The notes beneath the pieces are model-generated. The model did no database searches, was not told where the DNA came from, and saw only the letters and a program-made list of their open reading frames with translations. Below, one piece after another: positions 31,493 to 60,905 of a stretch of 64,000 bases of DNA. A program made the translations under genes and the position numbers. The stretch comes from Bacteroidota bacterium (GTDB lineage: Bacteria; Bacteroidota; Bacteroidia; Chitinophagales; BACL12): contig JADJJZ010000006.1 of the NCBI GenBank assembly GCA_016706255.1, positions 486,022 through 550,021 of the forward strand. The letters are read 5' to 3'. Every line of letters begins with the position of its first letter. The first letter of the stretch is position 1.

Positions 31493-31647
31493 ACCAATCG
31501 AACTGCCGATTTTGAGTAATCATTTCATACGAAGCTCCGTAGGGGCTGACCCATTTGTCAGCCCAATGTGCTGCAAACCTGATAATTTGCTTATGTGGCA
31601 ACCTCGGTGGCTGCTGTTCGAACAGCCGAATTTGAGCACGATTGTCC
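31493..31647 (+). repeat. 155-bp direct repeat, copy 1
   Basis: Matches 43286-43440 with about 9 mismatches by eye. Contains GAACAGCCGATTTTGAG at both ends and the hairpin AGCTCCGTAGGGGCT. Confidence 0.9.
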
Positions 31648-43285: not shown

Positions 43286-43440
43286 ACCAATGGAACAGCC
43301 GATTTTGAGTAATCATTTCATACGAAGCTCCGTAGGGGCTGACCCATGTGTCTGCCCAATGTGCTTCAAACCTGATAATTTGCTAATGTGGCAACCTCGT
43401 TGACTGCTGTTCGAACAGCCGATTTTGAGCACGATTGTCC
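43286..43440 (+). repeat. 155-bp direct repeat, copy 2
   Basis: See 31493-31647. A partial third core lies at about 43170-43225 and a diverged core at about 41780-41830. Confidence 0.9.
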
Positions 43441-43883: not shown

Positions 43884-44151
43884 TTACCAAAGTTACTCTA
43901 TTTAAGGCAGCATTTGCGTTTTGCGGTGCATTGTTTGATTATTTATTAGAAAGTAACCATTGAGGGATGTCTTATAAGTGGTTTTGTTGCAAAAATTTAT
44001 TATACTTCACAAAACTTGGCGAAAAATGAGATTCGAATTTTATTTGTTAAGCAACGGTAGTCTTATTTCTAGCCACATACAAAAGCATCTTCTTTTATAT
44101 GCATTTTTGCATTGTATTTGTAGGTTTGAAATCTAAGATTAATCCGATTAT

Positions 44152-44457
44152 TTAATGCATATGATGATGCTTTAGTTGGCAATATACTTCAATAACATAA
44201 TATGGAACAACATATAATAAATGGTCTTCATAATGATGTGGCATTAATTCATCACTTCCAATACCAACATCCTTTGTTAAATCAATCCCTAATTCTTTAT
44301 CAAGTCCTTTAAATTCATTTATGATGCTTTTTTAGTTGACCTAAATAATTTTGACAATCATTACAATTACATATAAAAGCCGGCTTATCCATATAATAAT
44401 CTACTGTGGATTGACATCAACATTTAAAATTATATTTCCGATTGCGATTTGTGTCAT
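44152..44457 (-). pseudogene. Cassette ORF (Cys-rich hypothetical), 2 frame disruptions
   Basis: ATG lies 8 nt after the GTCATAAC core. Pieces MTQIAIGNIILNVDVNPQ / YMDKPAFICNCNDCQNYLGQLKK / IINEFKGLDKELGIDL...HHHMH. Confidence 0.45.
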
Positions 44458-44465
44458 GGTTATTG

Positions 44466-44536
44466 GTTATGACGGTTTCGGGCTTTGCTATGGTCGACTT
44501 TTGAAACCAAAAACTGTCTCCCAGCACCATCATTAA
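44466..44536 (-). repeat. attC-like site (short, degenerate)
   Basis: Minus strand: TTAATGATGGTGCTGGGAG ... AGCCCGAAACCGTCATAAC. The arms are mutually complementary with bulges. Confidence 0.4.
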
Positions 44537-44853
44537 TTAATTAATCAAATTTTTTTTTTATACTGCCTGCTAACAAAGGCAAACCAATATTAGCAGGCAT
44601 TATTTCTATCCTTTTATAAATTTGTCGATTTTTCTTTTGTAAACATACCGATTGTTGTAAAACCTTTGCATTTTCTTCAATATCTCCGTTTTCTTGTCAA
44701 AGTGTGCATGCGCATTTGGTCATTTACAAAAATATTTATTTCGTCTATGCTGTCTGAAACATAAAAGTCAAATATGTTTCTGTTACCACCAAAAGGATAA
44801 AGCGATAGATGCTTACTAGTCAATTCGTTTTTTGGGATTTTTTACAAATCCAA

Positions 44854-45264
44854 TTAAAAAGTCCGCATGGTAAATATTTTATTACTGATTGTGTCCTGAA
44901 ACCGTATACTGAACCATTCTTGCTGTTCACCCCTCCAGTCAAACCATTTGATATAAAGTGTGTCACTGTGACCTGTTGAAGAAATTGTCTCAACACGGTT
45001 GTGATTATTAGTTGTGTCGAAAGTCAAAAAATATTTTTGATTTGTTTCAGTAAATACACCTTCTCCATACCAATATTGCATATCATCAGTACCACTATAT
45101 TGTATGAAAGTCCCAAAGTTGTCAGATTTGTTTTTTTAAATAAAAATATAATTGTTTGAAAACATTGATGCGTTCTCCTGTAGGTAAATAGTTGTGTCTT
45201 GCGCGAATAATTGCCCAATGACAGCCATGAATAATATTGTAAATATGATATTAAGTCGTTTCAT
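44854..45264 (-). pseudogene. Cassette ORF, secreted hypothetical, disrupted
   Basis: Signal peptide MKRLNIIFTILFMAVIGQLFAQ, then a stop inside an A-run near 45135. Coding-like frames continue down to about 44600. Confidence 0.45.
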
Positions 45265-45275
45265 TTATTAATGAC

Positions 45276-45367
45276 TGCTGACGGTTTAACACTTTGCGTT
45301 TTGAAAGCACTTCACTATCTTCCTCACAAACTTAATAAAAATTTCTACACTTGCTGTGCGGTTAGAA
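45276..45367 (-). repeat. attC-like site
   Basis: Minus strand starts TTCTAAC (45367-45361) and ends AAACCGTCAGCA (45276-45282). The next ATG is 11 nt downstream. It shares the ACGGTTT arm with the sites at 44466, 46630 and 59360. Confidence 0.45.
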
Positions 45368-45398
45368 TTTTTATCACTTCCATATTTTTTAATGAGTT

Positions 45399-46163
45399 TT
45401 AATAATGGAAATACTTTTCTCTCAATTGGTTTATCCAACGTTTTTCTTTATTGTCAGACTGCGCATTTGCGATATCATTTTGATCGTCTGCATGATTATT
45501 CAATTCTAAATCAAAACTTTCGTTTTCGTCTGGTGGTTGTTTCAAGTCTGCACCACCTTTGTGTGCAAATTGAATATAGTTTTTTGGTGGTGTAGGTAAT
45601 TTACTTTCACATTCTTTGAACAGAGATTTACCAGTAGAGGTAGAATGTCAGTACTACTGTTAACGAAATCCAAAGTTGATTTGTTTGCTCATAAGTCATG
45701 GACTTGTCACAAACACAACATTTTACAGTGTCGCTAAAATACCTAACTGGATTGTCTTTTAATGAGGGAAATTCCATTCTGTTTTCCAATTACCAACCAA
45801 AGCTCTAGTGCTTACTCTGCTGTGTTTAAGATTTTTACACCTTGTAATTTCATAAGGAAACCAATTTTAATTCATATGAAGTATATGGATCGAAATATTC
45901 AAGTAATTCCATTTCACCAATTTCCGGTGGAATACGTTTTAACTTACTGCCATAAAGCCAAACCTTTTTAACTTTTTTTAGTTTTGATATTGTCTCCGGT
46001 AATATGTTTATTTGGGCAAACAATTTTTCTCCAGGCTCTTCTACGGGGAAAATTCGTCACTGTTTTCTGCCGCAACCTTTTCAACATAATCGCAAAGTTT
46101 TTTCCAGGCAACAGAATTTCTGTCTTGAATATCATGCTCTATTTTGGACATATTTTTAACCAT
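45399..46163 (-). pseudogene. Cassette ORF: leucine-rich-repeat protein, several frameshifts
   Basis: ...LPETISKLKKVKKVWLYGSKLKRIPPEIGEMELLEYF... and ...FPSLKDNPVRYFSDTVKCCVCDK... are read in shifting frames. Confidence 0.55.
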
Positions 46164-46199
46164 TGTTTGTTTTTGCTTGGCAATGCGTCTATCCTTGTT

Positions 46200-46272
46200 A
46201 CTAAAGTTTTGGCGCTTGGCGAAGAATCGTATTTCAAAGCTATAATTCGTTTGCTTTTTTTTATTGTTACCT
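46200..46272 (-). repeat. attC-like site (truncated member of the TTTTGGCGCTT family)
   Basis: The stop TAA of the upstream ORF lies inside AGGTAAC. The plus-strand arm ACTAAAGTTTTGGCGCTTGGCGAAGAA resembles ACGACGTTTTGGCGCTTGACGAAAAA at 56543. Confidence 0.4.
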
Positions 46273-46612
46273 GTCAATTATTTTTATGTCCATTGATTCA
46301 CAATAACTTCGAATATATTCTTCTGTCCATCTATTTCCGTATTTTTGTCCAAGGCTTTGTGACACTTTTATATTATTGTCTTCAATTTCTTTTGTCATAT
46401 TACAACCCACACATTCTATTTTAAAACCATATTTTGTCTCAGGATGGTCAAGATTACAAAATGGACAACCGTCGCCCACATAAAATATATCAATGCAATA
46501 TTTTCGAGCGAATCCTTATTGTTTTATGCACTGTACTATCCGTCTGCCCATAACTACTTTGGCTAAGTGACAGCAATGTTGCGGTCAAGAATATTGTTGT
46601 CCACTTTGTCAT
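46267..46612 (-). pseudogene. Cassette ORF: secreted Cys-rich protein, one frameshift
   Basis: Signal peptide MTKWTTIFLTATLLSLSQSSYGQ starts 17 nt after the core at 46630-46636. The C-terminal 70 aa are in ORF 46267-46479. Confidence 0.5.
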
Positions 46613-46629
46613 TGTCGTTTTTGAATTGG

Positions 46630-46759
46630 TGCTAACGGTTTCAGGCTTAGCGTTCGTGTGCTTTTAAAAGCGAAAATTTTCTGAATTACCAAAGTTAATT
46701 AATTGCACAAATGTTTCTATGTGCACTGTTTACCCAATAACGCAAACCCCATATTAGGC
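46630..46759 (-). repeat. attC-like site
   Basis: Minus strand: GCCTAAT-ATGGGGTTTGCGTTATTGGG ... CGAACGCTAAGCCTGAAACC-GTTAGCA. It begins 4 nt after the stop of ORF 46764-47078. Confidence 0.6.
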
Positions 46760-46763
46760 GCAG

Positions 46764-47078
46764 TTAATTCCTTTTGTCTCCGCATGCAGCACAGAATGTC
46801 GCTTGTTTTGTCCTATATGGTTTGCCACAGCTTTCGCATGGTGGTCCATACTTTTCTATTCTGTGGTGCATTATTGCATTTGGCTCAGTTTCCTGAAAAC
46901 CTGTTACTTCAAAATAGTATTTCAAAAGTTCTTTAAATCGTTCTGGTTTATTGCTTAGACTGACCCCACTATTATTCATTCCTTTTCTATAAAGTAGATA
47001 GGCCTTTTGAAATTCATCTTCGTCAAGCATAGGAATTTCCATTTTACAACGCCAACACCAAAGTTTTTCATTCTTCAA
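46764..47078 (-). CDS. Cassette ORF: small zinc-ribbon protein (hypothetical)
   Basis: 104 aa, intact. CWRC ... CESCG ... CAACG cysteine pairs. Confidence 0.55.
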   Translation of the reverse strand: MKNEKLWCWRCKMEIPMLDEDEFQKAYLLYRKGMNNSGVSLSNKPERFKELLKYYFEVTGFQETEPNAIMHHRIEKYGPPCESCGKPYRTKQATFCAACGDKRN

Positions 47079-47325
47079 TTTCCATTTTAGGTGCAGTAAT
47101 TCTCATATTTCAAGTATTATATCCAACACACCCTGTAAGGCGAAGTTAATGTCTTTCCCAGTTTTTTATGTTGGCTACTAAAATTTCAAATTCGATAATT
47201 TTCGTATGGTCTACTGAATAGTCTTTTTGGAAAATTATTTTGCCATTAGCGAACAATATTGGATTTACAAAACCTTTTCTGCAATAGATATTTTGCATGT
47301 TTCCTGTTTATTAAATGAACTAAAG

Positions 47326-47580
47326 TCAGTGCAGTCTTTGTTCAGCGCCTTCGCTAAGGTATTTGTCGAAGTCAACCTTTTTCCAAAGGTCATTTTCGGA
47401 GATAAAGAATTCTAATTTCTCTGCTTCTTGCTTTTTGACAAGCTCAAAGTCTTTAATTTCTTCGCTTGTTGACGAGCCTTTCGCAAGGTAGTTGGTGATT
47501 GTTTGGATAGTTGCTCCAAACCTAACTTCGCCCTTTCCTGAAAAGAGATTTTGTAAATCATTTTTGATGCTTTTATGCAA
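47326..47580 (-). CDS. Cassette ORF fragment (hypothetical; possible decayed kinase-like gene continuing to about 47145)
   Basis: 84-aa ORF ending ...YLSEGAEQRLH. A further 50-codon ORF (MQNIYCRKGF...) follows in another frame. Confidence 0.35.
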   Translation of the reverse strand: MHKSIKNDLQNLFSGKGEVRFGATIQTITNYLAKGSSTSEEIKDFELVKKQEAEKLEFFISENDLWKKVDFDKYLSEGAEQRLH

Positions 47581-47640
47581 GACTCAAAGTAAGCACATTT
47601 TTTAATAAGTGCAAATGCCGATAGGTGGCGGTGAAATAAC

Positions 47641-47753
47641 CGGTAACGTATTGCAGCTACAAGTTGTGCCGCCATCCGTGAAGTTAAATGGTATAAGTCC
47701 ACCAAAACTTACAATACCGAAATGCGCGGCATAACTTGTCGGTGCTGTTAGGC
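47641..47753 (-). repeat. attC-like site
   Basis: Minus strand: GCCTAAC-AGCACCGACAAGTTATGCCGC ... GCGGCACAACTTGTAGCTGCAATAC-GTTACCG. It begins 5 nt after the stop of ORF 47759-48058. Confidence 0.85.
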
Positions 47754-47758
47754 GTAGT

Positions 47759-48337
47759 TTATTTAAATACGGGTTCAATGTCGTCGATCGTCCAATGTTG
47801 TCCGAGCTTACTTAATTGATATTTGTAATGATAGTCCGAAGGGAAATTAACTAATATTTCAGCAGAATTGGCGTCCTTTTTAAGAACGTCAAAATTAATT
47901 TTGTCCAACTCAGAAAGTCCGGGGTCTTCTTGACTGAATAAGATAAAATCGTATTCGAATCCTTCAGGCGGTCCGTCATTTGCTGGATGATCTTTAAACT
48001 GCTTGTCACACTTTTTAAAGTAGTCACGCCATTTGTCCGAATATTTATTTGAAAGCATGCCTGTCTCGGTTAGCGTCTTAAGATATTTTCTGTTGCAGGA
48101 AAGTTTAGCGTAAAATTTAGTTGAGTCCCATTCAGCGCCTGAATTACCGAAACTAAGTCACTGGCTAAATTAGTCCCATTGTCCTTGTACCATTTGAGGA
48201 AATTTAAAATTGTAGTCTCAGGGCTTGATTCGGCCTCAGATGTCACAAGTCGTCGACGCAGAATTTGTATTGTCTGCAGTCCTTGAACAAGAAAAAAATG
48301 TCCAGATTAATAATATGAAAATTGATGTCCTCTTAAT
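47759..48337 (-). pseudogene. Cassette ORF: lipoprotein (DUF3828-like), disrupted
   Basis: The lipoprotein signal ...SIFILLIWTFFSC starts immediately after the core at 48341-48347, with no canonical ATG. Frames shift before the intact 99-aa C-terminal ORF. Confidence 0.5.
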
Positions 48338-48340
48338 TAC

Positions 48341-48471
48341 GCCTAACGTTATGCAGATTTGCGACGGCGGGTCAGGCAACCGAAAATCTTTAATAAAATA
48401 CGAAGTTTTAGGTTATCGAAAATTAATCTGAGGATGGCGTCGCCCCGCTGGCGCAAATGTGCTTGTTAGCG
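48341..48471 (-). repeat. attC-like site
   Basis: Minus strand: CGCTAAC-AAGCACATTTGCGCCAGCGGGG ... CCCGCCGTCGCAAATCTGCATAAC-GTTAGGC. The TAA stop of ORF 48466-48714 lies inside the inverse core. Confidence 0.85.
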
Positions 48472-48763
48472 GTTGTTTTTCTTGATTAAAATTCTTGCAA
48501 AATGCACCGCCATTATTATTAAGATTTGTATAGGTAAAGCAATAAAAAACACAGGCCCAGCAAATATAAAGGGAGAATTTTCATTATCAAAAATAAAGAG
48601 AGCCAAAGGATAACCAATATTCCAAACAAAATGATTTGGATCAGAGCCTGTATACCTAAATTGCGGCACATTAAATTCAGGATAAAAGTCTATAATCGCA
48701 AAAAATAATTGCAAAAATGATTAACCATTTTAACCAGGGCTTCCTTTTGCTTTTCACTATCAT
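48466..48763 (-). pseudogene. Cassette ORF: small membrane protein, one frameshift in a T-run
   Basis: MIVKSKRKPWLKWLIIFAIIF... joins the 82-aa ORF (…FAIIDFYPEF…) after a 1-nt shift. Confidence 0.5.
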
Positions 48764-48904
48764 ATTTTTAATTCTGCTTCTCTATACAAAATTGGATTTA
48801 ATTTATGTTTATTTGGTTAATAAAATAAATCTCCAATCGTCTCATTCGATTTGCCGTATTAGTTGAAGGATTCATTTCATAGTACCCATATTGTTCTGAA
48901 TTAC

Positions 48905-49036
48905 CGCTAACGTTTTGCAGCTACAAGAAGTTGGCGATTTCGGAGACGAAAACTGTCTGCCAGCACTGAACTTGATACGAAGCACAAAGCTTCATTTAAC
49001 CACTGAACCGCCAATTTCTTGTAGGTGCTGTTACAG
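48905..49036 (-). repeat. attC-like site
   Basis: Minus strand: CTGTAAC-AGCACCTACAAGAAATTGGCG ... CGCCAACTTCTTGTAGCTGCAAAAC-GTTAGCG. The central TTAAATGAAGCTTTGTGCTTCGTATCAA is shared with 56543-56672 and 57385-57515. Confidence 0.85.
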
Positions 49037-49215
49037 GCTGGCGTTTTTTCTGTCGTGGTTTTTCTGTCCATTGTTATTGTCGTTTTTTGTGCGTTGGTTA
49101 GAAAGCTCTTTTGCAATTTTAGGTTTGCGAGTCGCTTGTGCGAATTGCAAATGTGCTTTTGGAGCGAAGGACCTTCCAAAATATAATGGTTAGTTAATTT
49201 CTTTTGCAATATCAT

Positions 49216-49995
49216 TCAGCCAACCAGAAGAAATGGCATAGCGTCTAAGGCCAAGAATTCAATTTCAGAATTTTTAGAGTCAATTACAAAATTTCTTATT
49301 GTCGTTTCAATAGCTATTTTTTTATCTTGGTCATTGTCATAAGAAAGAGCAACGTCTCTTAAATGTTCTCTAAATCTATCTAAAAGACTCCGTCTATTGT
49401 CGTTTAAGTCCTTTCTATCAATTTTGCACTTTTCGATTGTATAAGCAAATCTCACATTATCAGATTCAATAATTCCATTAACTTGAAATCTAATTTCACC
49501 AGAAGAATCGGTTATTTCAGGATTCACCATTTTTGGCAACTCAACTAAATCATAACTAGCAGAACTATTATTAATACTTCGCAAATTAGCTTCAGTGTTA
49601 TTAAAAGTAACTGCGGTACCTTCTAATTCAAAATTCACACCTTTGTTTTGGTTACATGTCGGACAAGATAACATTAAGTTGTCCCAAGAGAATGCAAGCC
49701 AATAGTAAGTAGCTTTAGGTCTATAATGTTCAACGTGATATTGCTCAACTTTTTGCTCACAAAAAGCACATGTACCTTTATAGATTGAAGTTAATCCGCT
49801 GCGGATTTCGGCCAACTTATATCTATCATTAAAAGGGGAAGTATCATTGTATGCTCCCGCATTAATAACAGACATCCTTTTTTCATGGGTTGTTCTGGAT
49901 TTTATTGGGACTCTTACTTGTCCTGGAAATAGATCAATAAACGCAGGTATTAGAGAAGCGGGAATTGCTGTCAGGTCTTTTTCTAGCTTGATCAT
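49216..49995 (-). CDS. ptuB: HNH endonuclease, PtuB-like (TIGR02646-type)
   Basis: 259 aa. CAFCEQKVEQYHVEHYRPK ... WDNLMLSCPTCNQNKG HNH core. Its start overlaps the ATPase stop by 4 nt. Confidence 0.75.
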   Translation of the reverse strand: MIKLEKDLTAIPASLIPAFIDLFPGQVRVPIKSRTTHEKRMSVINAGAYNDTSPFNDRYKLAEIRSGLTSIYKGTCAFCEQKVEQYHVEHYRPKATYYWLAFSWDNLMLSCPTCNQNKGVNFELEGTAVTFNNTEANLRSINNSSASYDLVELPKMVNPEITDSSGEIRFQVNGIIESDNVRFAYTIEKCKIDRKDLNDNRRSLLDRFREHLRDVALSYDNDQDKKIAIETTIRNFVIDSKNSEIEFLALDAMPFLLVG

Positions 49996-51778
49996 TTTTT
50001 TCCTAATTCATCATTAATAATTCGTTGAATTAATTCATCTATTTCATCGTCTTTGATGAATCCCTTGCCAGCCGCTTTTTGCTTTTCAAGTTCAACTTCC
50101 AGTTTTTTATTAATCCTGTATAACAAATAAGTTTCACTTGTATCAGAATTATTATCCTCAGTATTCATTCTAGAATCATCTAATCCAAATAGCGGAGATG
50201 TTAGAAGTGAGTTAATCATCAAATGATCTAAATTTTTGCGTAAATAAGGATCACTCACTCTCGTTTTACCGTCTTCTTTGTTTCGATAAACTCTAAACAT
50301 AATTGCATCTTCAGATGCTCCTTGAATGATTGTTGGGCTATGAGTAGTGAAAATAAACTGAACATTTGGAAATAGTTTTCTCAATTTGCCAATTATTACT
50401 CTTTGCCATTTTGGATGTAAGTGTAAATCAATTTCGTCTAATAAAACTATACCCTTTAAATCTGTAGGCGTATTTCCTTCGCCAGCATTTTTATTCAATC
50501 TATATAACAAGTCAGACACAAAAATTAAGATACTTTTGTAACCTTCCGATAGTTGATCAAATGTCAGAATCGTTCCTTTCTCCTTAAAAGTTACACCGCT
50601 TCCTTCGATCTTTATTTCAACATTTTTTTCCAATAAATCGAAAAACATTTTTTCAAGTAGTTCGACAGGGAATGAATTTGGTAGTTCTTTAATTTCACCA
50701 ATTGAATTATTTGCATCAAGATTTTTTTCTAGTTCTAATAATTTTTGGTCTTTTAACCATGAAACGGGATTCACTAGTGTTTGCTCGCTATCGAAAAGCG
50801 ACATAAAACCATATTCTTCTGGTTTATCAGTAGAATATCTTCCCGATGAGTTCCATAAGCAAAGAAATTATTCAAAATATTCCCTTTTTTGGGATTGTAT
50901 TCTTGGCCTTTATCATCAACACCAGACAGTCTGATGTTTTTATTATTTCTTATAATATCTGCGGCTTTTCCCGTTCCTTCAAGATCTGTCTTTTCGGTGA
51001 TAGAGTTTCCGTTAAAGGCAAGATAAATTCCCATCAGTATTAAAGATTTCCCATCTCCATTTTCTCCTAAGAAATAAATCTCCTTTGCTTTGTTGAAATT
51101 CAGATTTGTTTCTTCAACCGAAAAGAAGTCAGCAATCTCGACTTTTTCTATATAATTACTTTCATTGTCAATTACACCCTCCAGCCAAGACCTAAATTGA
51201 TCTTCAGAAATACTTAGGGCTTTATGGAAATTATTTGAAAAACATATTCTATAAAAATCATCGTCTCCGATTGCAACATTTGTAAACCTTGAGATGCGCT
51301 CAAGTAAAACTTGTTTAAAAAGTTTACCGACATTCGTGTTCTGTAATATTGGAGTAAAATCGTATGGAACATCTTGTGTACGCCTGTAAATAGGTTTAGC
51401 TGCCCCAGATTCTATTAATGCACTTCTAATATTTGTATATTGTTTCCCTGACTCGATTTTAAAAACACCTTTCATATCCCCAGTAGAATACTTCGAGGCG
51501 AATTCATCAACGATTTCCCCATGTGTAAAAAGTGTTGCGAATAAAGCAAAGAGTTTTTTTTCGTTAGGGTAATTCTGAATTTCAATCCAATAGCTTGGAA
51601 TAGGATCTTCAAGTGAATTAATTCCAAGAAAAGATTTAAGAATAGCTTCGTTAATAATAGCTTTTTTGCTTTTGAAATCTTCTATTATTTGCAAGCTTTC
51701 TATCACTTCCATAACTTGGACAATATCATACTTTGTCCAAGATGTTCTTTGTCTTTTGAAATCAACTTCAATACTCAT
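49992..51778 (-). pseudogene. ptuA: PtuA-like ABC/AAA_15-21-type ATPase with a ~220-aa uncharacterised N-terminal domain; one frameshift
   Basis: Walker A FLGENGDGKSLIL (ORF 50774-51778). Q-loop region, Walker B plus signature VLLDEIDLHLHP and THSPTIIQ (ORF 49992-50804). The frames join near the G-run at about 50855 (…AYGTH / GRYSTDKPEEYGFMSLFDSE…). Confidence 0.75.
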
Positions 51779-51781
51779 GAC

Positions 51782-53015: not shown

Positions 53016-53020
53016 TGTTT

Positions 53021-53242
53021 TTATTGAGTGTATTCTAATCTTTGTAGGAAAAGTGGTTCCCTCACATCAACATCTAGAACTTCTGCGATTTCAAAAAGTG
53101 TTTCCATTGTCGGTTGCATTTGGTTTGTACACCACTTAGAAACTGTAGTCCTGTTTTTGCCTAATTCTTCAGCAAGCCAGTTATTGGTTTTTCCCTGTTC
53201 CGCTAAAACAGCTTTAATCCGATTACACGCCTTTTTCTTCAT
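53021..53242 (-). CDS. XRE-family HTH regulator (controller-protein-like)
   Basis: 73 aa. ...KTNNWLAEELGKNRTTVSKWCTNQMQPTMETLFEIAEVLDVDV.... The stop is 6 nt before the methyltransferase start. Confidence 0.75.
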   Translation of the reverse strand: MKKKACNRIKAVLAEQGKTNNWLAEELGKNRTTVSKWCTNQMQPTMETLFEIAEVLDVDVREPLFLQRLEYTQ

Positions 53243-53265
53243 AAAAGAAGTCTTTTACATTAATT

Positions 53266-53286
53266 ATTCTGCAAAATAAGCAGAAT
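53266..53286. promoter_or_regulatory. Candidate operator (C-box-like inverted repeat)
   Basis: ATTCTGC-AAAATAA-GCAGAAT, 24-44 nt upstream of the HTH gene start. Confidence 0.4.
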
Positions 53287-53370
53287 CTGACAACTCTATT
53301 TTGTTCACATTCAGTCTAAAAGCTAAATAATATGCTTAATTAGTATCATAATTCGTCTATTGAGCATAAA

Positions 53371-53676
53371 ATGAATATTTTGAAAAAAATAAAGACTTGT
53401 TTAAAAGTCTATCGCAACAAAAAAATGCTCTTTATGAAAGCTAAGAACAAGAAAAAACTTATTCTATCTCTGATCAAAGATGATTTAATAAATGCCAAGC
53501 TAGTAAATGGTTTGAATGAGATCGGTCTGAATGCAGATAATTATTCTCTGCACCTGAGCGATACAATTTTTAACCTCATGAGATTTGAGGATAACGAGGA
53601 AACGGAAACAACTTTCGAACGATATATGGAGTTGGCTAAAGAGATCAATGTTCATAGATATTTCACAGTCTCATAA
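53371..53676 (+). CDS. Hypothetical protein (only plus-strand ORF in the cassette region)
   Basis: 101-aa ORF. Probable start at an internal Met (MLFMKAKNKKK...). Confidence 0.4.
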   Translation: MNILKKIKTCLKVYRNKKMLFMKAKNKKKLILSLIKDDLINAKLVNGLNEIGLNADNYSLHLSDTIFNLMRFEDNEETETTFERYMELAKEINVHRYFTVS

Positions 53677-54320
53677 GCCTATGGATGATTTAGCTTTACA
53701 AATTTATACTGAAATATTGTCTCGAAAGCCCAATGATTAATATTATTGCGGGTGGGTGATTTGGCTCTTTTGATTTTGCCTTTTGTGTCGGCTCGTGCGT
53801 TGGGGGCAAAAGCAAATGTGCCAAATGTGTGTCGGCAAAGTCGAAATGTGTCGGGTTGCAATAAATTGTCTACGGAGATAAAATAAACATTTTTGTCGGA
53901 ATGTAAGTCGCCCGATTTTTAGTAGGAATTGTCAAGGTTGCACTGTCGTCCGACGCTTGCCCTATAACTTGATTATTTGAGAAGTGTTCCCCAAAAAACC
54001 TCTCCAAATCCTACTTCAGTGCTTGAATCAGTAGGTTTAACTTTTTAAAACTACCTCTTATTTTTTTATTCAACCATTTAATAGCTACAAATTAATTTGA
54101 CCTTAATCCGAAATGTTTTACCACCTCAACGCATTCAACCCTACCACATCTTTCAATCTCTAATCCTGGAGCTAAATGCTTTATCAGTATTTTAAAAAAT
54201 TACCGCTCCAAATTCACGGAAAACCGTTAATCTTAAAATGTCACATTTTTAAAATTACGAACGCAATAAAATCAATACTTTTGGGCAAATGGGATTCATT
54301 TTCGCCACTTTACCATGTCA

Positions 54321-54432
54321 CACTGAAGTAGAAGCTGTTTTTTGCACCGCAAAAAATCCACTTCACTTAAAATAGAACATTTATCCTTCCAACTTTACTT
54401 AAGTGGCAGCAAAAAACAGCTTCACTTTAGTG
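54321..54432. other. Long imperfect hairpin in the ORF-free zone
   Basis: CACTGAAGTAGAAGCTGTTTTTTGC (54321-54345) pairs with GCAAAAAACAGCTTCACTTTAGTG (54409-54432) with 1 mismatch and 1 bulge. An inner 6-bp stem CCACTT/AAGTGG is also present. Confidence 0.6.
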
Positions 54433-54804
54433 CAAGCACTCAACCCTTTTCATTCCAATAATATTCCCGATTTCTATTTATTTCCATGCATCTTCATCTT
54501 TCTTTATATTTTAAAGAAACTTTCGAAGACTCCGTCGAAGTTTATGGGTTCAAGATGCTCATCATTAAACTCGGTAATGTCATCAATTTTATTTGTCGTG
54601 TTAAATAATACAATGTCCCAGCTCATATTACTGTAATTTTTGAATTTGTTAAAAATGGCACAGTCGTTTTTTTATTTGTCACTTGAAATTTCTTCTCTAT
54701 CTATTAATCCTTCTTTATTCGTTGGCTCTTCTTCGTTAGCAGATCTATCAAATAAATTTCTTAGTCTTCTAATTTGCCTTTGCCTATTAAAAGTTTCATC
54801 ACAG

Positions 54805-55241
54805 CTAAGTTGGTAAAAAAGCTAATATCCAAATTCCGATTGTTGATAAAGTTGACAAGCCATAAGCTGCAGAAATCATGCTAATCAACATAAATGAAAT
54901 AAATCCGAGCCATGAATAATAACTTGCTTGTTTAGATTTTAAAACATAACCGTCATCTCTAAAATTTTGCCTTACAGCAAAGGAAACCAAATAAAAAAGA
55001 ATAGATTTTTTTGAAGGAAATTCAAGTCATCAACAATGTTATATCTAATGCGTTTGACTGCTTTCTCAATTTGGTCGTTTTTATAATTTTTAATATCGTC
55101 CTCTGAAACATTTCTTTTTGATATTTCTTCTAAAGCAACAGTTACTGCTGTTTCGGTATAGCTAAATTTTTCATCAAGAATTTCTAATAACTCTTGAGTT
55201 GAAAGTTTTGAATAAGTTTCTTGTAATTCTTCTCGTGTCAT
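54805..55241 (-). pseudogene. Cassette ORF: membrane-anchored hypothetical, one frameshift
   Basis: ORFs 54972-55241 and 54805-54990 join across an A/T run (…DDLNFLQK / …VSFAVRQNFRDDGYV…). Confidence 0.5.
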
Positions 55242-55342
55242 AATAAAATGGTTAACTTTTGGAGCTAAAGAAAGTGCATAATAAAAACTTCCTAACTGTC
55301 TAATTGAACTAAAGGTATAAAATGTTCCAAGTTCATCGCAAG

Positions 55343-55420
55343 TGCAAACAGTGTCTTACCGCTGAAAATTTGCGCATGCAATTTACACTTACCTCCGCAT
55401 TTTTTTAGCCTGCGTTACCA
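55343..55420 (-). repeat. attC-like site (short)
   Basis: Minus strand: TGGTAAC-GCAGGCTAAAAAAATGCGG ... GCGCAAATTTTCAGCGGTAAGACACT-GTTTGCA. It starts 1 nt after the stop of the upstream ORF. Confidence 0.4.
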
Positions 55421-55421
55421 G

Positions 55422-56013
55422 CTAACGTTTATTTTTTCTAGCGTCTGCTCGCATTCCTAATTCCATTTCAAGTTGTGCTTGCCAAAATCCGTCTTCGGAT
55501 GTTGTTCGGTTGTCAGCAAGTTTCAACCTTTGTTTTAGTGTTTCAAATTGTTCGTCAGTAAAGTTGGAGTTTATGAAAGCGTCTTCGCCATTTTCTTTTT
55601 GAACAGTTAAAACAAAGTCTCGGTAAATTATTAAACAATTTGTCAACGTCTTGATAGAACAATTAAAAAACCGAGATGAAAAATAATCTTCGTGGTCAAG
55701 CCATTCTATTTCGTCATTTTGTCTGTATTAATAACTATCGCGTCACCGTCAGCGCATGAACCAATTACTACATACTTTTCGTATTCAGATTCAAGAAAGT
55801 CGTATTGGGTAGTCAGTTTATTTATACCTTCATAAAGATCATTGGTGTTTTTGCAAACGATAAAAACGGTGCTGCCTCAACCGGTAGTCCAATGTTGGTT
55901 AAAAAGTCTATTGTGTCAGGCTTGAGATTTAAGTTTCTAAGACTGTCTTTGTCGATTGGAGAAAGCTTGTCGCCTGTTGATGTCCAAATATTTTTAAATT
56001 GGTCTGAAGTCAT
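55422..56013 (-). pseudogene. Cassette ORF: SUKH-superfamily (SUKH-4-like) immunity-type protein, multiple frameshifts
   Basis: ...FLTNIGLPVEAAPFLSF..., ...YVVIGSCADGDAIVINTD..., ...WLDHEDYFSS... and the C-terminal ORF 55422-55646 lie in different frames. ATG is 11 nt after the core at 56025-56031. Confidence 0.55.
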
Positions 56014-56024
56014 TTTACGCTTGC

Positions 56025-56154
56025 TGTTAACGTTTGCGTTTCTGCAGCGGTGACTTTCGAAGCCGCGGCCTGTCCCACGAAACAAAAGTGTTGAACGAAG
56101 ATAAAACTTTAAATCAACAGGTCACAGCACCAATGCAGAAACATACTGTTATAC
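56025..56154 (-). repeat. attC-like site
   Basis: Minus strand: GTATAAC-AGTATGTTTCTGCATTGGTGCTGTGAC ... GTCACCGCTGCAGAAACGCAAAC-GTTAACA. Confidence 0.8.
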
Positions 56155-56348
56155 GCAGTTAATTTATACGTCCCACTTGTTTTGAAACTTGTATATACTT
56201 GTCAGACATTATAAAATCTACACAGTCGTTAATCATTTGTCTTAGAGTCCTTTTTCATTTTCAATTATTTTTGTCCCCAGTCCGCACCATTTATTGCAGA
56301 AATAATTTTTGATTCTAACGCTGACCGAATTCCTATTTCTTTTTTTGT

Positions 56349-56531
56349 CTAGTAGCAAACTTCAGGGTAAGGCAAATTGTCGCGTTTCTCTAAGTATGCT
56401 TTTTGCACAAATTCTATTTCAAAAATTTTAGATTCTTTGTCCATCATTAACAATGTCACTGAACCACCGTCCATCCAAGCATGAACCTCCTCAATAGTCA
56501 ATTGTCCTGTAGGGTTGAATAATCTATCCAT
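56349..56531 (-). CDS. Cassette ORF (hypothetical)
   Basis: 60 aa. ATG is 11 nt after the core at 56543-56549. The TAG stop is followed by 27 further sense codons in frame. Confidence 0.4.
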   Translation of the reverse strand: MDRLFNPTGQLTIEEVHAWMDGGSVTLLMMDKESKIFEIEFVQKAYLEKRDNLPYPEVCY

Positions 56532-56542
56532 ATATTAATCAA

Positions 56543-56672
56543 GCACGACGTTTTGGCGCTTGACGAAAAAGCGGATTTCGAATCACTAAATTGTCTGGCA
56601 GCCCTATTTGATACGAAGCACAAAGCTACATTTAAGTAAAGAACCCACTTTTTTGCCAAATGCAGGATATGT
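56543..56672 (-). repeat. attC-like site (inverse core degenerate)
   Basis: Aligns along its length with 57385-57515 (…TTAAATGTAGCTTTGTGCTTCGTATCAA…GCCAGAC…AAATCCGCTTTTTCGTCAAGCGCCAAAAC-GTCGTGC). Confidence 0.6.
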
Positions 56673-56676
56673 GCCT

Positions 56677-57375
56677 CTATTCGTTGCATATGTCAATTAT
56701 TTTATGACTTTTTTGTTTCCAAGTATTTGTCCTTATGTTAAGTTGGTAAATGTGTTCACCTAAACCACAAACGCCTGCAGGCACGTACGTAATCAAAGTG
56801 TTGCTCTTATTTTTTATTTTTGACGGAAAATAAGTCATTGAGTCCGTCAAGAATTTATTTAAAGTGAATTTATTGTCTATGCCTTGCAAGTAATAGCTAT
56901 AAAATGTCCCACCATTTCCACCAGAATCATTGATTACTGCTATGTCGTCTTTATTATCAAAGTTTAGGTCAGCAACTATTAGGTCGCCATAATAATTATC
57001 AACTACTTCTTTGTCGAGATTAATTTTGGTAGAGTATGAAATAACATTTTTACAGTTCATAAAAACGTCCCTGAAATAAAAGTGCGAGCTTACTGATATA
57101 TTATCAATCACTTTCTTTGTGGTCTTGTCTGTAAGGAACAATTTAACAATACAGGAGTCATGATGCTCTTTGGAATTTGTGTGTCGCTCAAAATTAACTT
57201 TAATGTCAAACTGTTCAGATAGGTTCAAGTGCTCACACGCTGTACTTGTAAAGGAATCGTATATTGACATAGGTTTAGTCATAGAAATTATTGAATCAGT
57301 ATTTTCAAACTGTTTAGATTGTTTTGTTGAACAACTGTAAATTAATATTGTTAATATGAATAGTGTTTGTTTCAT
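56677..57375 (-). CDS. Cassette ORF: lipoprotein with FG-GAP/VCBS-like motif
   Basis: MKQTLFILTILIYSC lipobox starts 9 nt after the core at 57385-57391. DLNFDNKDDIAVINDSGGNGG motif. The ORF-track start at 57465 lies inside the attC-like site and is probably spurious. Confidence 0.6.
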   Translation of the reverse strand: MKQTLFILTILIYSCSTKQSKQFENTDSIISMTKPMSIYDSFTSTACEHLNLSEQFDIKVNFERHTNSKEHHDSCIVKLFLTDKTTKKVIDNISVSSHFYFRDVFMNCKNVISYSTKINLDKEVVDNYYGDLIVADLNFDNKDDIAVINDSGGNGGTFYSYYLQGIDNKFTLNKFLTDSMTYFPSKIKNKSNTLITYVPAGVCGLGEHIYQLNIRTNTWKQKSHKIIDICNE

Positions 57376-57384
57376 TTTAGTGGC

Positions 57385-57515
57385 ACATAACGTTTTGGCA
57401 CTTAGCACAAAAGCGGATTTAGAAGCACTGAATAGTCTGCCGGCACTTACCTTACTAACAAGCACAAAGCTTCATTTAACCGCTGATCCCGCTTTTTGCT
57501 AAGCGCCTGTTAGGG
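57385..57515 (-). repeat. attC-like site
   Basis: Minus strand: CCCTAAC-AGGCGCTTAGCAAAAAGCGGG ... CCGCTTTTGTGCTAAGTGCCAAAAC-GTTATGT. Confidence 0.85.
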
Positions 57516-57575
57516 TAGGTTTTATAAATACAAAATTTATATTAGAAAATAAGGCTGGGTCTTGAATTGCAATCA

Positions 57576-57819
57576 TTACAACTCAGATTTTTCCCAGAAA
57601 ATTTCTAATTCATTATTAGCGCAAAATGCTCTTTCAAGTATGTTCACCAACTCATTATCTGCTCCGTTCTCACGGAATGTTCAATATGCTTAGGTCTAAC
57701 CAATATTCCTGATCATCTTTACTTTCTTCCTCAAGTTGATCAATTAGAAATTGTAACTGCATTTCATTAATTAAGCCAATTTCCTGGTTTGTCTCTTTGT
57801 TTTTTAATTTGTACATCAT
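57576..57819 (-). pseudogene. Cassette ORF: small acidic protein, one frameshift
   Basis: MMYKLKNKETNQEIGLINEMQLQFLIDQLEEESKDDQEYWLDLSILN then a shift to ...ENGADNELVNILERAF..NNELEIFWEKSEL. Confidence 0.5.
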
Positions 57820-57968
57820 TAAATTAGATTTTAAAATTATTGTTTGTTTCGTTTTTTAGAGTGGTCTCTGGACTCCACTATTATTGTTTGTGGAAAATTA
57901 AATTCATGAATTGTCGATCTGAATTGTTAGTCGAATATTTCTTGCCTCAATATGTCTTTTAAATTTGC

Positions 57969-58097
57969 ACTTAACGTTTGTGTTTATGACGGCAGGTTTT
58001 CGAAGAGCGTCACTGCCCCATTTTGCTGAACGAAATTAAGAAAACAAAACTTAAAACCTACACATCACCCCAAGCTGGCATAAACATTTTGTTACCT
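57969..58097 (-). repeat. attC-like site
   Basis: Minus strand: AGGTAAC-AAAATGTTTATGCCAGC ... CCTGCCGTCATAAACACAAAC-GTTAAGT. Confidence 0.8.
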
Positions 58098-58110
58098 GCT
58101 GTTTCTAGCA

Positions 58111-58763
58111 CTACCAAAATTTCCAAAAAGGTCTTTTGTCGTCCTTTATTTCCGATAATATTTGAACAACTCTTTCTTCCCCCCAATCCTGGTCATCAGG
58201 TATCTTCTTCCAGTCAATATCTTTTATTTCTATCCGTTCATCGGCTGACCCCGACCAATCAACTTTGAATCCATTCTTCCTTAGTTTTCAATAATTTTTT
58301 GCTATCAGAATCGCTTCATTGTTCTCCTCAGCTGTTAAAGCCAAGATACAAGCTCCTTGATTCTGGATCAACCGCTCTTCCCAAATCTTGAGAATGATAA
58401 TAGCAAAAACCTACTGCTTTAATTCCAAGCTCATCAAGTCTCTCTATTGTCTCCATACAATCTTCCTCACCGTCTGATCTTGTAAAACCCCACATTGTGC
58501 AAACAAACAATTCTTTCAGATATAAGCTCATCGAATATTTTAGCAAGCCGTTCGAAGTCGGTAGGATGTGTCCAGTGAAGACTTTCACTTTGATGTTTTG
58601 AATACCTATCCGATATTTTATCTTAAACCAAACCCTCGTCAAAATCACTTTCGTCATAAAACATTTCTCGAATACTTTCAAAAGTTCGTCTTCATTCTCA
58701 AAGCCAAACTTTATGTCGAGCTCTAATTGGTCAATGGCTTCTTTCTTTATTTCACTCTGTCAT
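58111..58763 (-). pseudogene. Cassette ORF: DUF6891-like (immunity-type) protein, several frameshifts
   Basis: ...GFTRSDGEEDCMETIERLDELGIKAVGFCYYHSQDLGRAVDPESRSLYLGF... then ...AEENNEAILIAK... and ...KNGFKVDWSGSADERIEIKDIDWKK... in other frames. Confidence 0.5.
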
Positions 58764-58789
58764 ATCTAGTGGCTAATCAATGAAATAGC

Positions 58790-58922
58790 TGGTAACGTTA
58801 TAGATTTGCGATAGACGGGCGGTTTTCCATTACAAATGTTCATTCTAAGATACAAACTTTCTGTAACCACAAAACCGTTCAGGAGCGGTAAGCCCCGCCT
58901 ACGTTAAAATGTGCTGTTATGC
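58790..58922 (-). repeat. attC-like site
   Basis: Minus strand: GCATAAC-AGCACATTTTAACGTAGGCGGGG ... CCGCCCGTCTATCGCAAATCTATAAC-GTTACCA. Confidence 0.8.
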
Positions 58923-58932
58923 GTAGTAGTCC

Positions 58933-59319
58933 TCAGTCCCGATTGGCGTCAATTATTTTTTTAACGAATTCTCTTCCATTAGTCAAACTTTCATCACCTC
59001 GAAATTCACTTGTTTCGATTGTTCCGTCATTAAAGACTTCTATTTCGAGTCTTGCCCCAACAATTGTTACACAAATCATTACGGAATTGTCTCTGGTACG
59101 TTCTAATTGATAGTAAATTTTGGCGCTGTCAAGTTCTTCCAATATCTAATAGAGTGGGTGATTGCTTTTGATGGTTTTCAGTTTCTTTATTATAAAACCA
59201 ATCACATAGTCTGGCTGAGTAGTAATGGAAAGGTCTTTGTTTTTGACAAGCTCTTTCAAAGCCTTCTCAACAGTTTTCCACTCTTTCAAAGATTTATATT
59301 CAACGTATGGTGACTTCAT
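58933..59319 (-). pseudogene. Cassette ORF (hypothetical) with an in-frame TAG, or two short ORFs
   Basis: MKSPYVEYKSLKEWKTVEKALKEL...SNHPLY-TAG(59146-59148)-ILEELDSAKIYYQLER...; a continuous frame of 128 codons. Confidence 0.45.
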
Positions 59320-59359
59320 GATTTACAATTTATTCGGATACGGATGGTCTTCCTTTACG

Positions 59360-59491
59360 CGCTAACGGTTTGCGGCTACCCGAAGGGCGGGACATTTACC
59401 ACAAAACTTGATTTTGAAAACTAATGTTTGATTAACCACAAAACTGTCCTTGGAACACAAAACCCCGCCTTTTGGGTAGGTGCTGTTATGC
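59360..59491 (-). repeat. attC-like site
   Basis: Minus strand: GCATAAC-AGCACCTACCCAAAAGGCGGGG ... CCCGCCCTTCGGGTAGCCGCAAACC-GTTAGCG. Confidence 0.85.
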
Positions 59492-59602
59492 GTATGGCGT
59501 TTCTGTTCTGTCATAGTAAGTTTGTTCTATCATTGCTGTCCTTAATTTCTCATATTTTTCTTTAAGTTCTTTTGGTGGTTCTTGACCACAACAATATCTC
59601 AT
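59486..59602 (-). CDS. Cassette micro-ORF (38 aa)
   Basis: MRYCCGQEPPKELKEKYEKLRTAMIEQTYYDRTETPYA. The TAA stop is embedded in the inverse core GCATAAC. Confidence 0.35.
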   Translation of the reverse strand: MRYCCGQEPPKELKEKYEKLRTAMIEQTYYDRTETPYA

Positions 59603-59637
59603 TTTTCTTGTCGTAATTTGTCAAACTCTACTTTTAG

Positions 59638-59728
59638 GTCGCTACGTTGTGGAAATAAATAATTCTTGAATTTGTATTAATGTGTCCGCCAAATTCTGTG
59701 CAGAGTAATAAACTGTCACGTTAGCTAA
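59638..59728 (-). repeat. attC-like site (short, degenerate)
   Basis: Minus strand: TAGCTAAC-GTGACAG ... TTCCACAAC-GTAGCGAC. The GTT core has lost one T. Confidence 0.35.
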
Positions 59729-60174
59729 ACTGTATTCTTTTGCTTTTCAAGTTCTTGCAACTGAATTTTTAATTGTCCGATTATATTATAGAAGTCGTAA
59801 ATTAAGTTTATTGAGTCAGAGGAAAGGTAAAGCATATTGTCTGCAATGTCTGTGTGGCATTTGCTTACAGAATTGTCAAACTTTTTCAATGCGTCATTTA
59901 TACAAGAAGTGTCAACACACGTTCCTGATAATGAAACGTGCAATTGTTGAACATCAAAAAGTATTTTGGATAAAGAAGCATAAACTTTTTTCTCCTGTTC
60001 ACGAATATCGTCTTTGGATTTATACTGCAAATCGAGATTTTTTTCGATTCTCTTTAATTGTCGGTTATTGCGATTTGTTAACCACAATATTCCCAATGGC
60101 AGAAATACGCCAGTCAAAATAATATTTACAAGGCCAGGGTTATTGTCAAGAATGTGTTTGAGTGTTTCGTTCAT
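59725..60174 (-). CDS. Cassette ORF: N-terminal TM plus coiled-coil protein (hypothetical)
   Basis: 149 aa, intact. TM helix LVNIILTGVFLPLGILWL. Starts 5 nt after the stop of ORF 60179-60553. Confidence 0.5.
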   Translation of the reverse strand: MNETLKHILDNNPGLVNIILTGVFLPLGILWLTNRNNRQLKRIEKNLDLQYKSKDDIREQEKKVYASLSKILFDVQQLHVSLSGTCVDTSCINDALKKFDNSVSKCHTDIADNMLYLSSDSINLIYDFYNIIGQLKIQLQELEKQKNTV

Positions 60175-60178
60175 TGGT

Positions 60179-60553
60179 TTAAATATTTTTTCTGCGAATT
60201 ACTGACCACCTCGGTTCAGGCACCATTTCAAAATCTTTGCTATGCGTTAAAAAGTAAAATGTCATTTCCGTTGAGCCAATATTTGTTATTCGTATTAAAG
60301 TCATTCCGTTTAATAAATGGTCGTGACAATTTTGACTTGATACTTTTAATTTATTCCAAGAAATACTATTGTCGGCTGTACCTTTTATTTCATAATTCTC
60401 AACAACACCATTTATTGAAGTTGAAAGGTCAATTCCGTTTCGATTTGTAATAAAAGTGGTCGTGCCATTTATTGAAAAGAAATACAACTTTGCTATTTCA
60501 ACTGCCAATTTACCAACGCCGCTTTTTTTTTCCAGTGTTTGATAAAGTGTCAC
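60179..60553 (-). CDS. Cassette ORF: small PD-(D/E)xK-like (DUF3883-like) protein
   Basis: 124 aa, intact, GTG start. ...NGIDLST...ENYEIKGT... fits D...ExK spacing. Confidence 0.4.
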   Translation of the reverse strand: MTLYQTLEKKSGVGKLAVEIAKLYFFSINGTTTFITNRNGIDLSTSINGVVENYEIKGTADNSISWNKLKVSSQNCHDHLLNGMTLIRITNIGSTEMTFYFLTHSKDFEMVPEPRWSVIRRKNI

Positions 60554-60786
60554 AAGCCGTTAAGTTGGTCTTGAGTTATTGAAAAAATTATGTGTCGTCA
60601 TTTTGTTCTGTTGTCTTTACGCTTACGCATAACAATATATTTGCGAATATACAAAATTCCAAAATACGAATCTGAAATACAACTCATTGATTATCAATAA
60701 TAAAAATTGTAGTTTTTTGGATATACAAATTGAAGTAAGTTGCGCAAAGCCGTTTTGGCAAGTTGTAATAGGGCCTCAAAAGTTTA

Positions 60787-60905
60787 ACCTAGCCGGGCCG
60801 CAAAAGAAAAGCCCGCAGACCTGAGGAACGAAGGGACGAGGACTTGGAGCGGAGGGCCGGCAGCGATGTTGTGGGTGTGGGGGATGTTGATGCTTCAAAT
60901 TCAGG
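60787..60905 (+). repeat. GC-rich ~125-bp repeat, copy C
   Basis: ACCTAGCCGGGCCGCAAAAGAAAAGCCCGCAGACCTGAGGAACGAAGGGACGAGGACTTGGAGCGGAGGGCCGGCAGCG...GGGTGTGGGGGATGTTGATGCTTCAAATTCAGG. Inverted homologue of 18500-18624. Confidence 0.8.

Follow-up and report, generated by a model that had tools for sequence, protein, structure and literature searches.

Does the chromosome of a Bacteroidota bacterium (lineage Chitinophagales; BACL12) hold an integron-type array of gene cassettes and, if so, which recombinase could have moved them? The question is raised by a run of small co-oriented open reading frames (ORFs) and imperfect palindromes in a 64,000-nucleotide stretch of contig JADJJZ010000006.1 (assembly GCA_016706255.1, positions 486,022 to 550,021 of the forward strand), hereafter the window. 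An original prediction, made from the sequence alone, read this region as a sedentary integron or a group of clustered attC sites without an integrase (CALIN). Our analysis suggests that the window array is probably an orphan, CALIN-like member of an integron-like system that has non-canonical sites and a co-oriented recombinase without the IntI-specific (I2) domain.

Surveys have defined integrons by the extra domain of the integron integrase (IntI) together with a canonical attC model, and Bacteroidota have thereby appeared nearly integron-free (PMC9024848, PMC4889954, 10.1101/2024.07.02.601686). Néron et al. (2022; PMC9024848) recovered nothing from Bacteroidetes except In0 elements and a single Salinibacter integron, and Darracq et al. 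(2024; 10.1101/2024.07.02.601686) count Bacteroidota among the clades previously found without integrons. Elsewhere, the phylum is listed among those with integrons (PMC8618304, PMC9668308).

Results

Extent and sites of the array

The array occupies positions 44470 to 60790 of the minus strand, from a GTTAAAC core just past the terminator hairpin of panC to a last, truncated site. Between 44.5 and 59.5 kb, 12 minus-strand palindromes were found (8 intact, 2 degenerate, 2 truncated), each located 3' of a co-oriented ORF. The intact ones are 113–133 nt long and follow the pattern RYYYAAC...GTTRRRY, with an opening core R'' and a closing core R'. Both cores are present in all eight intact sites, which start with nnnTAAC and end with GTTAnnn; their length and variable centre are within the range of attC sites (about 57–141 bp). 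A cassette ends in an imperfect palindrome of about 130 nt, which is preceded by one promoterless ORF or a few of them, in the common orientation.

A covariance model (R1) was built from the eight intact sites, with the variable centres masked with N, and searched against both strands of the whole window with filters off. R1 recovered the eight training sites (57–87 bits) and two sites on which it had not been trained, 46762–46627 and 56673–56542, while scores on the plus strand were far lower than on the minus strand and no match with E < 0.1 was obtained in the remaining 47 kb outside the array. A second model, a plain sequence profile made only from the metagenome sites described below, gave 11 minus-strand matches with E ≤ 3.5e-4 between 44470 and 59493. 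No match at E ≤ 1 was obtained in 80 unrelated Bacteroidota loci (1.3 Mb) used as a control. The two models support 10 to 12 sites, fewer than the 13 to 16 originally counted, and the coordinates quoted for individual palindromes (e.g., 47753→47641, 48471→48341, 59491→59360, and 49036→48905) proved correct on direct reading. A simple scan for AAC...GTT with complementary arms was unspecific at low thresholds (26 matches versus 15 in shuffled sequences), and the covariance and profile models were used instead.

Starting from the panC side, with all sites on the minus strand, the first intact site is located at 59360–59491 (132 nt, GCATAAC...GTTAGCG; R1 82 bits, nhmmer E 1e-32; among those folded below), and its R'' core contains the stop codon of a 38-aa ORF. 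It is followed by intact sites at 58790–58922 (133 nt, GCATAAC...GTTACCA; R1 65 bits, nhmmer E 2e-9), 57969–58097 (129 nt, AGGTAAC...GTTAAGT; R1 57 bits), and 57385–57515 (131 nt, CCCTAAC...GTTATGT; R1 68 bits, nhmmer E 4.5e-17), by a degenerate site at 56542–56673, in which R' is mutated to GTCGTGC and R'' is lost (untrained, R1 23 bits, E 2e-3; nhmmer E 2e-14 across profile positions 17–130), and by another intact site at 56025–56154 (130 nt, GTATAAC...GTTAACA; R1 57 bits). The site at 48905–49036 (132 nt, CTGTAAC...GTTAGCG; R1 87 bits, nhmmer E 3e-39) closes a large cassette that bears a Septu system. Beyond it lie intact sites at 48341–48471 (131 nt, CGCTAAC...GTTAGGC, with a stop codon within the R'' core; R1 60 bits) and 47641–47753 (113 nt, GCCTAAC...GTTACCG; R1 78 bits) and a degenerate site at 46627–46762 with R'' GCCTAAT and R' GTTAGCA (untrained, R1 26.8 bits, E 2.9e-4; nhmmer E 1e-4). 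A weak match at 46201–46251 (...GCCAAAACTTTAGT; nhmmer E 0.05, profile positions 83–133) is a possible 3' site remnant, and the site at 44470–44552 is truncated, with the 3' two-thirds left and R' decayed to GTCATAA (nhmmer E 3.6e-6, profile positions 49–132). As 4 of the 12 sites are decayed, part of the array is fossil. At the opposite end, a GTTRRRY-type core was recognized by reading the sequence, namely GTTAAAC at 60784–60790 of the minus strand, directly past the GC-rich hairpin downstream of panC; it is an uncertain candidate for the insertion point, and the hairpin itself is kept in L002.

The position of the ORFs relative to the sites was largely as predicted. Stop codons lie within the inverse core at 59486, 48466, and 46267, the sole plausible plus-strand ORF in the array is that at 53371–53676, and start codons close to the GTT core were confirmed at 59319, 57375, 56531, 56013, and 46612, at a distance of 16–45 nt. 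No tyrosine recombinase or remnant of one was detected in the 64-kb window by tblastn or with Pfam, in agreement with the prediction, and the genes at 31.7–41 kb, which were checked for an integrase, are the kdp operon and regulators. Given the missing recombinase, the array is an orphan, CALIN-like one: with 10 to 12 sites in total, two or more of them less than 4 kb apart, it has the composition of a CALIN if its sites are counted as attC.

Two further observations concern the sites. At 55330–55435, a stop codon at 55422 is followed by AAACGTTAGCTGGTAACGCAGG, which resembles an R' end abutting an R'' start without the body of a site and could be the scar of a deletion that joined two sites. 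The stretch of about 120 nt that precedes the site at 49036 (49037–49155) is 72–78% identical to regions upstream of attC-like sites in the metagenome contigs L124, L171, and L121, and together with these counterparts it forms a conserved extension.

Structure of the sites

For the eight intact window sites, single-stranded folds were computed with DNA parameters, and in six of them the bottom strand, which is complementary to the genes, was the more stable one. Of 220 related sites, 181 showed the same preference, the difference being -2.4 kcal/mol on average. Most mismatches between the arms set an A against a C in the coding strand, and a G.T wobble results in its complement. The better folding of the gene-complementary strand suggests that the substrate would be single-stranded, as in integrons.

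In the typical layout, TAAC is followed by 1 nt, a 3-bp helix, a C.C mismatch, a stem of about 20 bp, the variable centre, the return arm, 5 nt, and GTTA. The 1-nt and 5-nt spacing flanking the 3-bp helix was found in 168 of the 220 related sites (76%) and in most window sites, and a mismatch at a fixed position, C.C on the top strand and G.G on the bottom strand, in 155 of the 220. Canonical 5/6-nt spacers occur in two window sites, those at 58097 and 56154. No bulges were present in the stems of the folded window sites, and bulges were rare and without side preference in the related sites (36 on one arm, 50 on the other), so that the extrahelical bases that define the polarity of canonical attC sites are absent. 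The two or three extrahelical bases that the original prediction had expected on folding were seen neither in the 8 window sites nor in the 220 related ones.

When 150 related sites were aligned, 93% of the cells were paired compared with 70% in shuffles, compensatory changes were found in 19 of 22 pairs, every slid control collapsed, and TAAC and GTTA were present in 146–148 of the sites. This is the pattern of attC sites, in which the cores are conserved and the stem between them keeps its structure rather than its sequence. The alternative that the palindromes are transcription terminators was rejected, as there is no T-run and terminator-like matches numbered 6 where 9.3 were expected.

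The sites were also compared with those of class 1 integrons. The aadA1 attC sequence was verified against plasmids, and three class 1 integrons were fetched, which yielded one attC type and one other; as this was too little diversity for a fair canonical model, the test was made in reverse. In a search of the class 1 integrons (30 kb), R1 located their aadA1-type attC sites precisely to both ends (E 0.009 and 0.017), and no other comparable match was obtained.

The same site family in metagenome contigs

An exact 25-base pattern common to three window sites was used as a metagenome query and matched at least 120 contigs. R1 gave 192 matches in the first 80 of these contigs. Among the matches listed, the profile found 272 sites in 120 contigs, and 75 of the 76 contigs with several sites carried them on a single strand only. 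No cassette is shared between the window and the 120 metagenome loci; only the sites themselves match, and homology at the level of cassettes can accordingly not show that those of the window have moved.

Between metagenome contigs, homology breaks at the cores, which by comparison of sequences fits a crossover at G/TT and modular cassettes. It spans a shared cassette and its site in L096 and L105 and stops right after ...AAAACGTTA, just past the GTTA of the site. A different kind of break was noticed at L139 2686–2760 and L148 137–211, where the same 3' end of an ORF (94% identity) is joined to different site bodies and the homology stops just after TAACAGC; this suggests either that exchange occurs on the R'' side too or that the site was replaced.

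Large multi-gene units are found in related arrays at L096 3760–13160, L203 11363–17491, and L213 11529–16876. Cassettes of L096 carry genes for a GmrSD/HNH endonuclease and an EcoRI-type methylase, L213 has VWA-PP2C-kinase-DUF4407 genes, and L203 has five unannotated genes ahead of an attC-like site. These contents hint at a defence-rich cargo of the related arrays.

A recombinase upstream of related arrays

In 10 contigs that were found by means of the site, a tyrosine recombinase with Phage_int_SAM_4 and Phage_integrase domains (354–379 aa) is encoded immediately upstream of the array on the same strand, and the first site follows 0.8–2.3 kb past its stop codon. A protein search gave thousands of relatives, the closest named ones being labelled as Bacteroidota integrases or XerD. 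Of six informative contexts that were selected by protein instead, five had the same sites downstream of the recombinase gene and on its strand (L201, where the match is weak, L202, L203, L207, and L209); over both selections, the length of the recombinase was 354–405 aa. No tyrosine recombinase outside this family was detected by tblastn in the 120 contigs, save an isolated opposite-strand match to the family's own N-terminal domain in L187. One related metagenome-assembled genome (MAG) carries at least two such recombinase platforms.

A hairpin followed by ATAAGnnAGTTA is located about 90–230 nt past the stop codon of the recombinase gene in most loci and resembles an attI site (in L207, at 11190–11245). 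L207 (11140–11545) and L208 (1183–1590) come from different samples and encode an identical recombinase (P0001). For 1200 nt, as far as ...CCTATAAGTAAGTTA (AAGTTA), the two contigs show 100% identity; beyond it, identity falls to 24%, and each contig has its own first cassette behind the common core. L090 is 90% identical upstream and continues with a third sequence past the same GTTA. The divergence of the three contigs exactly past GTTA indicates that cassettes are exchanged there.

The best NCBIfam match of the enzymes was the XerA/integron-integrase model, with 194–216 bits (cut-off 220). Scores for the integron-integrase model TIGR02249 were 177–210 bits (cut-off 265), and the match came in two pieces that skip profile positions ~177–237. 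Likewise, the alignment to VchIntIA (PDB 2A3V) skips VchIntIA residues 179–242, whereas that to XerA is continuous from end to end. Compared with IntI1 of a class 1 integron, identity was 29–35%, 41 IntI-specific residues were missing, and the C-terminal SP(L/F)D was common to both. In an AlphaFold model (mean predicted local distance difference test score 80.8), only 17 residues stand in place of the I2 helix, and XerA and VchIntIA ranked equally in Foldseek. The family has in addition a confidently modelled, beta-rich N-terminal domain without a Pfam match (residues 1–71 of P0001, encoded at L207 10001–11140), which a disordered linker (residues 77–94) connects to the rest of the protein. 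Without the I2 domain in the adjacent enzyme, the related loci do not count as complete integrons, and the window has no recombinase either.

Surroundings and cargo of the window array

The housekeeping gene directly upstream of the array is a frameshifted, co-oriented panC (60954–61749, minus strand), with glgA beyond it. In the closest relative, the MAG L001, panC is 95% identical at the protein level and is directly followed by a homologue of window positions 31.5–24.8 kb; L001 has no array after panC and also lacks the segment holding the kdp operon and a remnant of an insertion sequence (IS). Because the array is absent after panC in L001, it appears from this comparison to be an insertion downstream of that gene.

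One large cassette, closed by the site at 49036, comprises a regulator gene, a methyltransferase gene, and an anti-phage system, all on the minus strand. An HTH_3 helix-turn-helix regulator (53021–53242) is followed by a frameshifted D12-class N6-adenine DNA methyltransferase (52692–53015 and 52020–52469; whole unit 52020–53242) and by a Septu system at 49216–51778 (PADLOC, PtuA 1e-42 and PtuB 4e-38; Pfam AAA_21/AAA_15 and HNH). The PtuA ATPase is split by a frameshift into 50774–51778 and 49992–50804, and the PtuB HNH nuclease corresponds to 49216–49995, such that the two genes abut at 49992–49995. Most other cassette ORFs have no Pfam match.

Frameshifts were found in panC (61650), kdpB (35116–36781), PtuA (50774–50804), the methyltransferase (52469–52692), and several cassette ORFs, a pattern that fits an assembly prone to indels, probably from long reads, better than it fits pseudogenes. 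Since the housekeeping genes panC and kdpB are also affected, the broken cassette ORFs cannot be read as a sign of decay.

Several other features of the window were recorded. A direct repeat of about 110 nt, with GGGTCAGCCCCTACGGAGCTTCGTATGAAATGATTACTCAAAATCGGC inside, occurs at 31490–31600 and 43310–43420, where it flanks the segment with the kdp operon and the IS remnant; L001 has one related copy between panC and a histidine kinase gene. This repeat belongs to a separate family that resembles repetitive extragenic palindromic (REP) elements and is unrelated to the attC-like sites. A fragment of a DDE_Tnp_1 transposase (41941–42273) adjoins a HAMP-PAS sensor ORF (40015–40959) in which no kinase domain was matched, and the two mark an IS-scarred stretch that separates the kdp genes from the array. 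The only Rfam match above the gathering score in the window was a Flavo-1 RNA (RF01705, 53.8 bits) at 15194–15266, which, like the nearest genomes, assigns the window to Bacteroidota.

Discussion

Weighing the alternatives

Could the palindromes be repeats of another kind, such as REP elements, bacterial interspersed mosaic elements (BIMEs), miniature inverted-repeat transposable elements (MITEs), terminators, or RNA elements, with no role in the recombination of cassettes? They are indeed intergenic palindromes at the 3' ends of genes, and the genome does contain a REP-like repeat family, a separate one, with copies at 31.5 and 43.3 kb. The attC-like sites, however, were found only in co-oriented arrays. 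The remaining 47 kb of the window had none, nor had the 1.3 Mb of Bacteroidota loci; a scatter after ordinary genes in both orientations, which the original prediction had named as the mark of a REP/BIME element, was not seen in these sequences. With invariant cores at which the homology between loci breaks exactly, a recombinase consistently next to them, a non-transcribed strand that folds better, no T-run, and fewer terminator-like matches than expected (6 versus 9.3), such an origin is scarcely credible. An ordinary CALIN of a canonical integron deserves more weight, yet we consider it improbable. Here, an I2-bearing IntI encoded elsewhere in the genome would move the cassettes, and the I2-less recombinase would be a neighbour with another job. 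The cores do fit RYYYAAC and GTTRRRY, two window sites have 5/6-nt spacers, R1 weakly recognizes class 1 attC sites, and integrons have been reported in Bacteroidota (PMC8618304, PMC9668308). Nevertheless, the 120 + 14 related loci (~0.8 Mb) contained no canonical IntI and, save the match in L187, only the I2-less family; the recombinase has the same position and orientation in 10 of 10 loci, together with an attI-like GTTA core; the cassettes of L207 and L208 switch exactly at that GTTA; and the sites have no extrahelical bases.

It is also conceivable that the array is a dead fossil, the cassettes of which were assembled by site-specific recombination in an ancestor or donor and are now immobile, the block having arrived by homologous recombination, IS activity, or a similar route. 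This would account for a window without a recombinase, for the 4 of 12 sites that are degenerate or truncated, and for the many broken ORFs; in addition, an IS remnant lies at 41941–42273, and repeats adjoin the array. On the other hand, eight sites have kept both cores and the pairing of their stems in full, the broken ORFs are probably assembly errors, panC and kdpB being frameshifted too, and the presence of at least two recombinase platforms in one related MAG makes action in trans plausible. We regard a wholly dead array as rather unlikely, though not as a minor concern.

The reading that we prefer, in which the window array probably belongs, as an orphan, to an integron-like system whose sites are non-canonical and whose co-oriented recombinase lacks I2, has to be set against several observations that speak against it. 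The window has neither a recombinase nor a clear attI-like motif, and the link to the I2-less enzyme comes entirely from other contigs. Even there, L213 has no site within 5.8 kb of the recombinase, and no attI-like motif follows the recombinase gene in L201 and L202. As R1 was trained on the sites of the window itself, its search of the window was partly circular, and the metagenome sites are mutually related, so that the statistics drawn from them overstate independence. The strand asymmetry in wobble positions is modest (398 on the bottom strand versus 263 on the top strand of the 220 related sites). Within the array, the stretch from 49.2 to 56.0 kb has no recognizable site; small co-oriented ORFs each followed by a palindrome are indeed present, but the claim that nearly every small ORF is so followed was overstated. 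Finally, the integrity of genes cannot be judged in such a frameshift-rich assembly. Taken together, the earlier reading of the locus as an attC-type, CALIN-like cassette array was right in kind and wrong in detail: the architecture and the cores are those described, and the extrahelical bases of canonical sites are absent.

A possible mechanism

From the related loci, we propose that a tyrosine recombinase would cut at the GTT(A) core and that cassettes would be exchanged between attC-like sites or with the attI-like site (the hairpin followed by ATAAGnnAGTTA). A complete platform would consist of the recombinase gene directly upstream of the cassettes and in the same direction, with the attI-like site past its stop codon. 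The enzyme that presumably performs the recombination would be an IntI relative with SAM_4 and catalytic domains and an extra beta-rich domain at its N-terminus, without the I2 domain of about 41 aa, and its substrate would be single-stranded. The asymmetry of the sites may arise from the 1-nt versus 5-nt spacer and the fixed C.C/G.G mismatch, instead of from bulges. The array of the window may still be mobilisable, and any further movement of its cassettes would need an enzyme encoded elsewhere in the genome.

The I2 domain is held to be essential for integron function. In canonical integrons, it contacts the extrahelical bases, according to the account of MacDonald et al. (2006) cited in PMC8138268, and the missing I2 domain and the missing bulges of the present system would be coherent with each other. 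In current accounts, single-strand recombination arose with the gain of the I2 helix (PMC4792948, PMC7790495). We tentatively suggest that the array may be part of an integron-like system that has not been described before and is widespread among environmental Bacteroidota. In this system, an I2-less, IntI-related recombinase encoded co-directionally upstream would capture and swap cassettes at GTTA by means of bulge-free, attC-like hairpins; the system could be a surviving stage from before the gain of I2 or an independent solution to the same problem. Literature searches gave no description of this family of recombinases and arrays, an absence that is no proof of novelty. If the arrays are as they appear, a major environmental phylum harbours a large reservoir of mobile cassettes, anti-phage systems among them, that has so far escaped notice, and an I2-less relative acting on bulge-free hairpin sites would provide a natural test of integron evolution.

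Comparison with known systems

Among known recombination systems, Xer (XerA, XerC/D, and pdif modules) resembles the present one in its enzyme, given the end-to-end alignment to XerA without a large insertion and the top rank of the XerA/integron-integrase NCBIfam model. In contrast to Xer and pdif, the sites are hairpin-forming palindromes of about 130 nt and not dif-like sites of 28 bp, there are several copies of the platform per genome, adjoining variable cassettes, and the scores are below the family cut-offs. The 'inverted' integrons of the Treponema denticola type also have the recombinase gene upstream of the array and co-oriented with it. Their IntI proteins carry the additional domain, whereas it is missing from the Bacteroidota enzyme, which possesses a further domain, of about 100 aa, at its N-terminus.

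With respect to cargo, the Septu system and the methyltransferase of the window array, as well as the restriction-modification-type genes of L096, are reminiscent of the anti-phage cassettes that sedentary chromosomal integrons carry (Darracq et al., 2024; 10.1101/2024.07.02.601686), although those are Vibrio-type integrons with a canonical IntI. Compared with canonical integron cassette arrays (PMC4889954), the sites described here have no bulged extrahelical bases and instead show the 1/5-nt spacer, the 3-bp helix, and the C.C mismatch, and the recombinase of their complete relatives has no IntI-specific domain. What they share with the canonical arrays is the tandem arrangement of small, co-oriented, mostly promoterless ORFs and RYYYAAC...GTTRRRY palindromes, the conservation of structure over sequence with a variable centre, the break of homology at the GTT core, and cassettes of 0.5–1 kb next to some large defence cassettes, with a cargo of ORFans.

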